Below, one piece after another: positions 29,411 to 30,603 of a DNA stretch of 50,469 bases. Source of the DNA: Escherichia phage Kalemo; sequence record PP925822.1; one strand, 5' to 3'. The notes beneath the pieces are model-generated. The model ran no database searches, was not told the origin of the DNA, and saw only the letters and a program-made list of their open reading frames with translations. Both the position numbers and the translations under genes were made by a program. Each line of letters begins with the position of its first letter. Within the stretch, counting starts at the first letter, position 1.

Positions 29411-29440
29411 AAAAAAGGGGGCATAGCCCCCTTTAATTTT
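29409..29440. terminator. bidirectional intrinsic terminator
   Basis: A8-GGGGGC-ATA-GCCCCC-TTTAATTTT between convergent genes. Confidence 0.7.
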
Positions 29441-30053
29441 AATCATAGTGTGATGCATTTATAACCAAAACAGATGAGGCGGTGTAAATACCAACAGGTC
29501 CAGGGGTTTGTGCAACCTGCCTGGAAAAAGAGTAGATCCCGTTACCATACGCGGCAGCTTGAGACTCAAAAATCATAAATCCACCTAAAGCCGGATTAGG
29601 TACAGAGTTTAACGCTGTTAGTGATGGCATTATTGCGCAAGGGTAGCCCAGGTTAACATCAAACGCGATCCCGCTCACACCAACTTGCTTTGCATCAAGC
29701 GGCCTCATTTTTCCATGATAAACCATTTCACCATGAGCGTTATAAAACGCTATGCCGTGACTACCTGGAGGAGTCACCATGTTACTAAAAGCATAAACAA
29801 TAACCTCCCCTTGATTATCAGATCTATCAATTCTTATTGCGTGCCTTCCACCATTGTTAAATTGCGTAAATGATATGTATGATTTAGCAGTCAATCTAAC
29901 AAAGAAAAAACATACCCTATCAACAGGAATTGACGAAGTAAAAACGGTTCCGGTATTAGCAGATATTACGGCCCGATCAATTAGATTAACTGGAGTGAAA
30001 TCTGGACTTAACCATAACGATCCGTCTGATTTTTTTATACTCATCCCGTACAT
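29439..30053 (-). CDS. hypothetical protein (204 aa)
   Basis: Last gene of leftward 3-gene operon convergent with J; start at MYGMSIKK. Confidence 0.5.
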   Translation of the reverse strand: MYGMSIKKSDGSLWLSPDFTPVNLIDRAVISANTGTVFTSSIPVDRVCFFFVRLTAKSYISFTQFNNGGRHAIRIDRSDNQGEVIVYAFSNMVTPPGSHGIAFYNAHGEMVYHGKMRPLDAKQVGVSGIAFDVNLGYPCAIMPSLTALNSVPNPALGGFMIFESQAAAYGNGIYSFSRQVAQTPGPVGIYTASSVLVINASHYD

Positions 30054-30055
30054 TA

Positions 30056-30334
30056 TCACCCCCAAAAAGTATATATATATCTTGAATCAGATCCAGAAAG
30101 CCCACTCCATGTAACGGTGTCGCCACTTACCCCTAAGTTTGGTGCGCCAGGGTCGCCACCACGCCAGGAATTCATGCCAACATATATTGCTTTCAATGAT
30201 TTACCTGGTGGCCTGTTTTGGTAAGTCTTGCTACCTGATGGCTGAGTGAATTTATCAAGGAAGAAAACAGGCGTTAAAAGTCCTGTAACTTCCCTTCCTC
30301 GATCGTCATATATTGCATAACCATATTGCGCCAT
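30056..30334 (-). CDS. hypothetical protein (92 aa)
   Basis: Middle gene of leftward operon. Confidence 0.45.
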   Translation of the reverse strand: MAQYGYAIYDDRGREVTGLLTPVFFLDKFTQPSGSKTYQNRPPGKSLKAIYVGMNSWRGGDPGAPNLGVSGDTVTWSGLSGSDSRYIYTFWG

Positions 30335-30603
30335 TAATTACACCTCAAATCAATAAGTTTACTTTCATTTTGCCAACGGTTGATAAATTTAACTTCTTTA
30401 TTGTCAACGCTCAACCTGTATTGCTTTTGGCTGAATCTGTTTTCGCGTACTGCATTAATTTTAACTTCATGGAATCCGTTAACAGGGAATGTTTTAACGT
30501 TAAATTTTGCCGTGCAGTCGATCTCATTGAAGTTGCCAGTAGGAGACGCTGCGCACCCGGTCAGAGCGGCTACAGTGGCGATAACTGCGATTAATTTTTT
30601 CAT
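30334..30603 (-). CDS. putative outer-membrane lipoprotein (Cor/Llp-like candidate)
   Basis: Signal peptide plus lipobox ALTGC; RBS AAGGAG; first gene of leftward operon beside receptor-binding genes. Confidence 0.6.
   Translation of the reverse strand: MKKLIAVIATVAALTGCAASPTGNFNEIDCTAKFNVKTFPVNGFHEVKINAVRENRFSQKQYRLSVDNKEVKFINRWQNESKLIDLRCN

Follow-up and report, generated by a model that had tools for sequence, protein, structure and literature searches.

Receptor-binding proteins of T1-like phages and their cognate exclusion proteins are placed by a published model at a hypervariable locus downstream of gpJ, where allelic variants have been matched to each known receptor (Maffei et al. 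2021, PMC8594841). A 2026 preprint covering 255 phages confirms this matching, assigns a distinct protein family to the targeting of each of FhuA, BtuB, LptD and YncD, reports one or two accessory proteins, and presents AlphaFold3 models that include Bas06 with BtuB (bioRxiv 10.64898/2026.04.02.716166). Here we describe a leftward operon of three tightly coupled minus-strand open reading frames (ORFs) at 29439-30603 of Escherichia phage Kalemo (sequence record PP925822.1; the whole stretch analysed, 50,469 nucleotides, is referred to as the window), encoding a small lipoprotein followed by proteins of 92 and 204 amino acids. We consider it likely that this operon is the BtuB-type allele of the J-downstream hypervariable receptor-specificity locus, in which an adhesin half (the 204- and 92-residue proteins) and an exclusion half (the lipoprotein) are inherited together as one 1.1-kb cassette.

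A mechanistic precedent for both the receptor-binding protein (RBP) and the exclusion lipoprotein is provided by the Oekolampad/Rtp system (RBP_Oeko/Rtp44 with SE_Oeko/Rtp45), whose layout is identical to that of Kalemo: the genes lie on the strand opposite to J, that of the RBP coming after that of the lipoprotein. By cryo-electron microscopy (cryo-EM), LptDE is seen to carry the Oekolampad RBP on its outer face (PDB 9rpt) and the Rtp45 lipoprotein, which has a disulphide, on its periplasmic face, where it deforms the loops needed by the RBP (bioRxiv 10.1101/2025.07.07.663478). The system differs from that of Kalemo in having no separate small protein, an RBP of 321 amino acids, and LptDE as the receptor. 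T5 provides a second comparison, in that Llp is a small periplasmic outer-membrane lipoprotein whose gene adjoins that of the RBP pb5, and it is thought to block a receptor that is a TonB-dependent transporter.

The FhuA-type loci of T1, N15 and phi80 likewise encode two proteins, one small and one large, and a lipoprotein (Cor) next to J. Their pair of non-lipoprotein genes is remotely homologous to the Kalemo pair, but the receptor is FhuA rather than BtuB and mature Cor is unrelated by sequence to the Kalemo lipoprotein. The arrangement of the genes also varies. In T1, Bas05 and Bas07 the two genes come after J and face a convergent cor gene, whereas Kalemo, Bas04 and Bas06 have them inverted and fused into the operon of the lipoprotein gene. 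T1, N15 and phi80 have the two genes in the orientation of J, and the start of the small gene overlaps the J stop in N15 and lies 2 nucleotides after it in phi80. Outside the T1-like phages, the closest relatives of the Kalemo pair are those of the short-tailed Stx phages (933W L0126/L0127, Sp5 ORF72/ORF73 and phi24B gp55/gp54), which are found in a podovirus context with lom after the pair and no adjacent lipoprotein gene, and for which BamA is the reported receptor.

Cassette boundaries and receptor type

The phage of the window is a T1-like member of the Drexlerviridae, and its closest relatives at this locus belong to the subfamily Tempevirinae of that family: nucleotide identity is 99.6% to Escherichia phage vB_Eco_Sip, 99.4% to tiwna and 98.0% to the BASEL phage Bas04 (FritzSarasin), and 70 phage records match the locus. 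Because the three ORFs are conserved in this way, and because homologues were found for all three proteins, their coding status is supported. No significant Pfam family was found for any of the three proteins. In Bas04 the same three genes, labelled only as hypothetical, occur in the same order, with the gene for a 'J-like tail tip protein' on one side and those for an exonuclease, a recombination protein and SSB on the other. The BtuB-type locus of Bas04 and Bas06 agrees with that of Kalemo in position, gene order, strand and gene sizes, with nothing of substance different, and the Kalemo operon is, judged by its sequence, the known BtuB-type allele in a phage near-identical to Bas04. The initial annotation had described a leftward three-gene operon led by a lipoprotein gene, convergent with a J-like gene and with downstream products of 92 and 204 amino acids, and all of these features are present (Table 1). 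The lipoprotein and its lipobox are likewise there, but the protein is one residue shorter, when counted from its ATG, than the 90 amino acids first given.

The extent of the exchanged unit was located by comparison with phages of known receptor, BtuB being the terminal receptor of Bas04 and Bas06 and FhuA that of the sister phages Bas05 and Bas07 (BASEL S5 Table, PMC8594841). There are several features of note. First, blastn homology of the window to the FhuA-type Bas05 ends at 29421 and resumes at 30550, and homology to the FhuA-type Bas07 ends at the same position and resumes at 30583; the BtuB-type Bas06 aligns without a break across the whole cassette, with a nucleotide identity of about 72% at the locus. 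Second, the left edge is just past the J stop codon and the right edge about one codon beyond the lipobox cysteine. Third, the sequence outside the right edge – a 17-mer, the hexamer TATAGT, the 5′ leader, the ribosome-binding site and the first codons – is nearly the same as that upstream of cor in Bas05 and Bas07, and the segment coding for the signal peptide in Bas06 is 88–90% identical to cor of these two phages, falling to 27.5%, a random level, right after the Cys codon. From these two junctions it follows that the exchanged unit is composed of the mature lipoprotein domain together with the 92- and 204-residue genes. Finally, the allele predicts the terminal receptor, in that it is present in the BtuB-dependent Bas04 (98% nucleotide identity) and Bas06, and the FhuA-dependent Bas05 and Bas07 carry the other allele; apart from the cassette, no local difference in the comparison with Bas05, Bas06 and Bas07 follows the choice between BtuB and FhuA. 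Given its near-identity to a phage whose BtuB dependence was determined experimentally, the receptor of Kalemo is almost certainly BtuB.

The J-like central tail fibre is the other protein in which receptor specificity might be sought, and its C-terminus was expected to co-vary with receptor type. It does not: the C-terminus is conserved across the BtuB and FhuA types, with the exception of one Ile/Leu position, and Kalemo J is 88–98% identical to that of the FhuA-type Bas07 in most 60-residue bins (approximately 76–85% near both ends). This argues against J as the specificity determinant, and the C-terminus provides no positive evidence for docking. Because homology breaks only at the cassette and J does not track the receptor, the cassette would be the local determinant of BtuB versus FhuA use, with the mature lipoprotein domain inherited along with it. 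J itself has a mosaic structure, residues 841–960 (window 28505-28864) being 90–98% identical to Bas07 but only 43–70% identical to Bas05 and Bas06, a pattern independent of receptor type and genus that points to recombination inside J too. The mechanically called J ORF begins with a TTG at 25934, and the likely start is the ATG at 25985 (MAKYMISG...), which fits the annotated 1141-residue proteins of Bas04 and Bas07.

The 92- and 204-residue proteins

Both proteins belong to families with members in other tailed phages. The 92-residue protein matches phrog_557 (E=4.3e-20), the family of T1 ST32, N15 gp22 and phi24B gp55, which by family label are 'small Ig-like tip proteins', and the gene order in the operon, small and then large, is as in this family. 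The 204-residue protein matches phrog_425 over residues 1–204 (E=4.2e-49), the family of T1 ST31, N15 gp23 and phi24B gp54 ('hand-like' tip proteins); T1 ST31 and VT2-Sakai H0143 also match phrog_425. Aligned by hhalign with the FhuA-type proteins of T1, N15 and phi80, the small protein gives a probability of 75% (E=2.5e-5) and the large protein 97.7%, at pairwise identities of only about 24%; word-indexed homologue searches returned only the BtuB/Stx-type branch (31 proteins) and never reached the FhuA-type branch. An alignment of 14 homologues of the 204-residue protein reveals conserved termini and a conserved core with variable stretches between.

The relationship with the Stx phages is closer, the 204-residue protein being 44% identical to phi24B vb_24B_42 and the 92-residue protein 51% identical to an N-terminally extended vb_24B_41. 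The Stx pair follows a 422-residue needle protein that aligns to J residues 889–1137, i.e. to its distal third, and has a J-like end, ...VYDQNGRLAVRIGRLR. This link had been considered as a new observation, but the module shared by T1-like and Stx phages has already been described by Matusiak et al. (2025), whose AlphaFold2-multimer models dock the large 'hand-like' protein to the tip of the spike as well as to FhuA or BamA. The small Stx gene is annotated as 75 amino acids in both VT2-Sakai H0142 (L002, 6717-6995) and phi24B vb_24B_41 (L010, 9827-10105); starting at an upstream TTG these genes encode 92 amino acids, with an N-terminus, (M)EYGFAIYNRNNVNVTG, that matches that of the Kalemo 92-residue protein. 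As the Sp5 paper lists ORF72 as 92 amino acids, the length of 75 residues, which is also the one given for phi24B gp55, is probably an underestimate.

The AlphaFold2 model of the 204-residue protein is an all-beta globular structure, and the protein is predicted to be soluble and has no export signals despite the family name 'membrane associated'. Its best structural match is the LptD-binding Oekolampad RBP determined by cryo-EM. A PDB search with its sequence returned nothing, and hhalign detected no profile similarity of the Kalemo 204-residue protein or lipoprotein to RBP_Oeko or SE_Oeko; the idea that RBP_Oeko might be a fusion of the small and large proteins likewise found no hhalign support. 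A strand-turn-strand motif (YG-x-x-h-x-[DN]-x-x-G) is present at the N-terminus of RBP_Oeko and, in similar form, at those of the small and large proteins; further copies lie in the middle of the large proteins and at the J C-terminus. With an hhalign E of about 0.002 over 13–14 columns, it offers a hint, and only that, of a docking mode.

Neither protein has a signal peptide, a lipobox or a hydrophobic segment (over 19 residues, hydropathy peaks at 0.55 for the 92-residue and at 1.28 for the 204-residue protein), and they therefore cannot reach the envelope by known routes. In a 2026 preprint combining cryo-EM and proteomics of phi24B, gp54 (204 amino acids) is reported as a low-abundance component of the virions, gp55 went undetected, and additional density is seen at the tip of the needle. 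Taken together, the homology, the fold, the genomic context and the virion proteome of this relative argue that the pair acts as a tip adhesin, and we therefore propose that the 92- and 204-residue proteins are most likely a tail-tip receptor-binding module and not exclusion co-factors.

Several points weigh against this interpretation of the operon. First, in the Sp5 (VT2-Sakai) paper, individual in-frame deletions were made of ORF72 (92 amino acids) and ORF73 (205 amino acids), and the nine genes classed as essential and the two with reduced infectivity include neither of them, so the pair is not required for Sp5 infection of K-12. Second, the evidence for the proposed binding of BtuB by the 204-residue protein consists of genetic correlation and of the AlphaFold3 models of others for Bas06. 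Third, the putative adhesin genes are here under a cor-type promoter together with the exclusion gene, and not with the tail genes as in T1, N15 and phi80. Fourth, no significant similarity links the mature lipoprotein to Cor, Llp or SE_Oeko.

It could be supposed that the 204-residue protein, the 92-residue protein, or both, are assembly chaperones or tip-capping factors of J, and that J itself contacts BtuB. The low abundance of the phi24B homologue, the failure to detect gp55 and the dispensability of the Sp5 homologues would all fit such a role, and Matusiak et al. (2025) mention a possible structural or chaperone-like function. It seems unlikely, however, since J does not co-vary with the receptor and has a C-terminus conserved across both types, the cassette is the only local sequence tracking BtuB versus FhuA, and the Oekolampad protein at the homologous position binds LptD directly, as seen by cryo-EM. 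That the whole operon is an exclusion system, with the 92- and 204-residue proteins as envelope helpers of the lipoprotein, is very unlikely. This is suggested by the KanT1 paper (2026), which, contrary to the published locus model, regards the two non-lipoprotein genes as encoding membrane proteins possibly tied to exclusion (an 'extended cor cassette'); its authors found nothing that matched these proteins structurally, and they also refer to a BtuB variant in the Tempevirinae. The three genes do form one operon led by the lipoprotein gene, and the dispensability of the homologous pair for Sp5 infectivity is compatible with such a role, but the absence of any export signal or hydrophobic segment, together with the low membrane-affinity estimates that have been published, is not. 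Moreover, the Stx pair occurs without a lipoprotein gene and after a needle gene, J and the pair are immediate neighbours in N15 and phi80, phi24B virions contain the homologue of the larger protein, and the best structural match of the 204-residue model is a proven RBP. The suggestion of the initial annotation that the two downstream genes could be co-factors of exclusion is for these reasons unlikely; likewise, the operon, which had been placed beside the receptor-binding genes, probably contains them, J being the probable docking fibre whose sequence does not track the receptor.

On the reading of the pair as a tail-tip module, the 204-residue protein and its 92-residue partner would stay in the cytoplasm and be added to the J trimer at its C-terminal tip. 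As the adhesin, the 204-residue protein would then bind BtuB and commit the virion to ejecting its DNA.

The lipoprotein

The product of the first gene has a hydrophobic N-terminus, an L-T-G-C lipobox, and an Ala after the lipid cysteine (MKKLIAVIATVAALTG followed by CA). Under the Lol sorting rule of E. coli, an Ala rather than an Asp in this position sends a lipoprotein to the outer membrane, and because Ala and not Asp follows the lipid cysteine, the Kalemo lipoprotein is predicted to go there. The family is small, with eight clusters in an index of 5.8 billion proteins and 6 relatives among 1.84 billion representative proteins. At the protein level the lipoproteins of Bas06 and Kalemo are 53% identical, and Cys30 and Cys88 are invariant in 9 aligned sequences, a cysteine pair that may be compared with the disulphide of Rtp45 and with the two conserved cysteines that five aligned Cor sequences also carry.

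Similarity to Cor depends on which part of the protein is considered. The full-length lipoprotein matches phrog_1119 (Cor) in PHROG with E=4.5e-7, but the mature 73 residues have no match there at E<=0.1, and BLAST likeness to T1 Cor is limited to residues 1–34. The PHROG match to Cor was accordingly rejected as an artefact of the shared signal peptide, and the comparison with the Cor and Llp families that had been put forward as a check finds likeness to Cor confined to the signal-peptide end, so that the protein is not assigned here to either family. The 6 relatives, recovered by a deep search with the mature lipoprotein, include none that bridges to Cor or Llp. When the mature lipoprotein and the mature Cor family are aligned by hhalign the probability is 1.8% (E=0.027); because this alignment is nonetheless colinear and pairs both cysteines, a very remote kinship with Cor is conceivable. 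The model of the lipoprotein is a small beta-barrel that superposes on T5 Llp over 48 residues at 2.2 Å.

The distribution of the lipoprotein follows that of the adhesin pair. About 82 coliphage-type records have the lipoprotein and 81 have a homologue of the 204-residue protein with at least 60% identity, these being tallies from two separate searches that were not matched record by record, and the lipoprotein is found essentially only alongside the BtuB-type pair and is absent from the FhuA-type sister phages. From this absence, the co-transfer with the BtuB-type pair, and the occupation of the slot used for expression and export of cor, we conclude that the lipoprotein is probably a functional analogue of Cor in the cor slot and a BtuB-directed superinfection-exclusion factor. 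The candidate exclusion role that the initial annotation had proposed is thus retained as the best reading and as a prediction, given that the gene is in the position of Cor and of the proven exclusion lipoprotein Rtp45/SE_Oeko, has the promoter, ribosome-binding site and signal peptide of cor, and is always associated with the BtuB type. That it has some other job, in lysis (spanin-type) or in general envelope modification, is highly improbable: the lack of significant similarity of its mature domain to Cor, Llp and SE_Oeko and the Rz-like spanins among the weak PHROG matches of short lipoproteins (seen for the T1 Cor signal peptide) could be read in that way, but the exact substitution, from the lipobox codon on, of its mature domain for that of Cor while the promoter and signal peptide of cor are kept, inheritance as a unit with the BtuB-type pair and absence from FhuA-type sisters, the conserved cysteine pair (cf. 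Rtp45 and Cor), and a location in which, over the region examined, no lysis gene is nearby all speak against it.

As an exclusion factor, the lipoprotein would be exported via Sec and Lol to the outer membrane and anchored in its periplasmic leaflet, where, by analogy with Llp and FhuA and with Rtp45 and LptD, it would bind the periplasmic face of BtuB and alter its surface loops such that the cognate adhesin cannot bind. The outcome would be that superinfecting phages are excluded and that progeny are not wasted on cell debris. A further proposition, on which we find the case evenly balanced, is that the mature lipoprotein founds a small BtuB-directed periplasmic exclusion family unrelated to Cor, Llp and Rtp45, grafted at the lipobox codon onto the cor promoter and signal peptide, with the signal-peptide segment serving as the right-hand recombination handle for the whole cassette. 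If this is true, the expressed lipoprotein should block BtuB-dependent T1-like phages, and might also block BF23-type phages, E-colicins and vitamin B12 uptake.

Other relatives of these proteins were also encountered. Lipoproteins about 30% identical are present in unrelated large phages (58–92 kb) of Proteus (e.g. MT740244 and NC_070975), Cronobacter (LC519601) and Vibrio (OR243293), and these keep the cysteine pair and a VKINAVR..RFG motif; Cronobacter phage vB_CsaP_009 also encodes a protein distantly related to the 204-residue protein, approximately 30 kb from the lipoprotein gene and not adjoining it. Four unannotated 'Campylobacter phage' records of 49,946 bp (MG065643, MG065657, MG065680 and MG065681; phages E6, C4, A113 and A139) encode the lipoprotein at 50% and the 204-residue protein at 65% identity. 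With their T1-like genome size, these look like coliphage-type Drexlerviridae and not Campylobacter phages, and there may be a problem of labelling or host assignment.

Expression signals and genomic setting

The operon is preceded by one copy of a 17-mer, 5′-TAGCACTTTTTGTTAAA, of which there are 19 copies in the window on both strands when up to three mismatches are permitted, against 0.34 expected by chance. The usual setting of the other copies is that CATAAT or TATAGT follows 21–22 nucleotides on, and then a ribosome-binding site and a gene; several have as the spacer a short G+C-rich inverted repeat, e.g. GCCAGGCGCAAAGCCTGGC at 742-760. A scan with the sigma-70 consensus did not call the operon promoter, there being no -35 hexamer 16–18 nucleotides from the TATAGT, and its six matches in the region are no more than in shuffled sequences. 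The TTGTTA within the 17-mer is too far from the -10-like hexamer to be a normal -35. Nonetheless, because the same combination of 17-mer and CATAAT/TATAGT precedes many genes, and because the region is conserved upstream of cor in the sister phages, we infer that the 17-mer and TATAGT constitute the operon promoter, although not as a canonical sigma-70 -35/-10 pair. The reverse-oriented element and the TATAGT from which the operon was first said to be driven are therefore both real, and that they drive it is an inference from this context. The 17-mer sites look like a phage-specific promoter architecture or the binding site of a regulator.

At the other end of the operon, an intrinsic terminator hairpin begins 4 nucleotides past the J stop codon and sits between the stops of J and of the operon, from which it follows that the two units converge. 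An Rfam search of 29200-31200 gave only a sub-threshold chance match, at this terminator. The operon thus lies directly downstream of the J-like gene and ahead of the recE/erf/ssb genes (exonuclease from 31105, Erf-like from 32237 and SSB from 32883). Between the operon promoter and the divergent exonuclease gene, an A+T-rich stretch at 30789-30848 has an 8-nucleotide periodicity (three overlapping copies resembling TATTTATG/TATGTATG), and a similar stretch is present at 50156-50199.

Table 1. Positions of the operon, its cassette and associated features in the window
Feature	Coordinates	Strand	Remarks
J-like central tail fibre, 1141 aa	25985..29410	+	Last 21 residues LKVKDANGVLRVEVGRITGSW (29345-29407); probable docking partner
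Bidirectional intrinsic terminator	29414..29434	both	9-bp stem with 6 G-C pairs, 3-nt loop; eight T after it on the minus strand
Exchangeable cassette	29422..30549		Mature lipoprotein domain, 92-aa gene and 204-aa gene; limits from blastn homology breaks
204-aa ORF	29439..30053	-	ATG 2 nt past the stop of the 92-aa ORF
92-aa ORF	30056..30334	-	ATG overlaps the lipoprotein stop (TAATG)
Outer-membrane lipoprotein gene (predicted), 89 aa from ATG	30334..30603	-	ORF; product starts MKKLIAVIATVAALTG followed by CAAS; mature part 73 aa
Signal peptide and lipobox	30553..30603	-	MKKLIAVIATVAALTG followed by C; common to cor of FhuA-type phages; conserved sequence flanking the cassette on the right
Ribosome-binding site AAGGAG of the lipoprotein gene	30612..30617	-	8 nt upstream of the start; conserved in Bas04-Bas07
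-10-like hexamer TATAGT	30635..30640	-	21 nt downstream of the 17-mer; conserved in Bas04, Bas05, Bas06 and Bas07
Promoter-associated 17-mer TAGCACTTTTTGCTAAA	30660..30676	-	One of the 19 copies in the window; also upstream of cor in Bas05 and Bas07
Further 17-mer copies	723-739 (+), 1186-1202 (+), 6700-6716 (+), 15746-15762 (-), 39651-39667 (+), 46800-46816 (-), 49838-49854 (-)		

The locus is one that is already known, and the observations refine the published model of the T1-like receptor-specificity locus rather than describe a new system. We did not find stated in the literature the exact cassette junctions, the presence of a cor-type promoter and signal peptide on an unrelated mature domain, or the structural link between the BtuB-type protein and an LptD-binding protein. 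The outer-membrane protein that such a phage needs would be readable from the sequence of its cassette, which would be of use in the prediction of host range and in the engineering of receptor switches.

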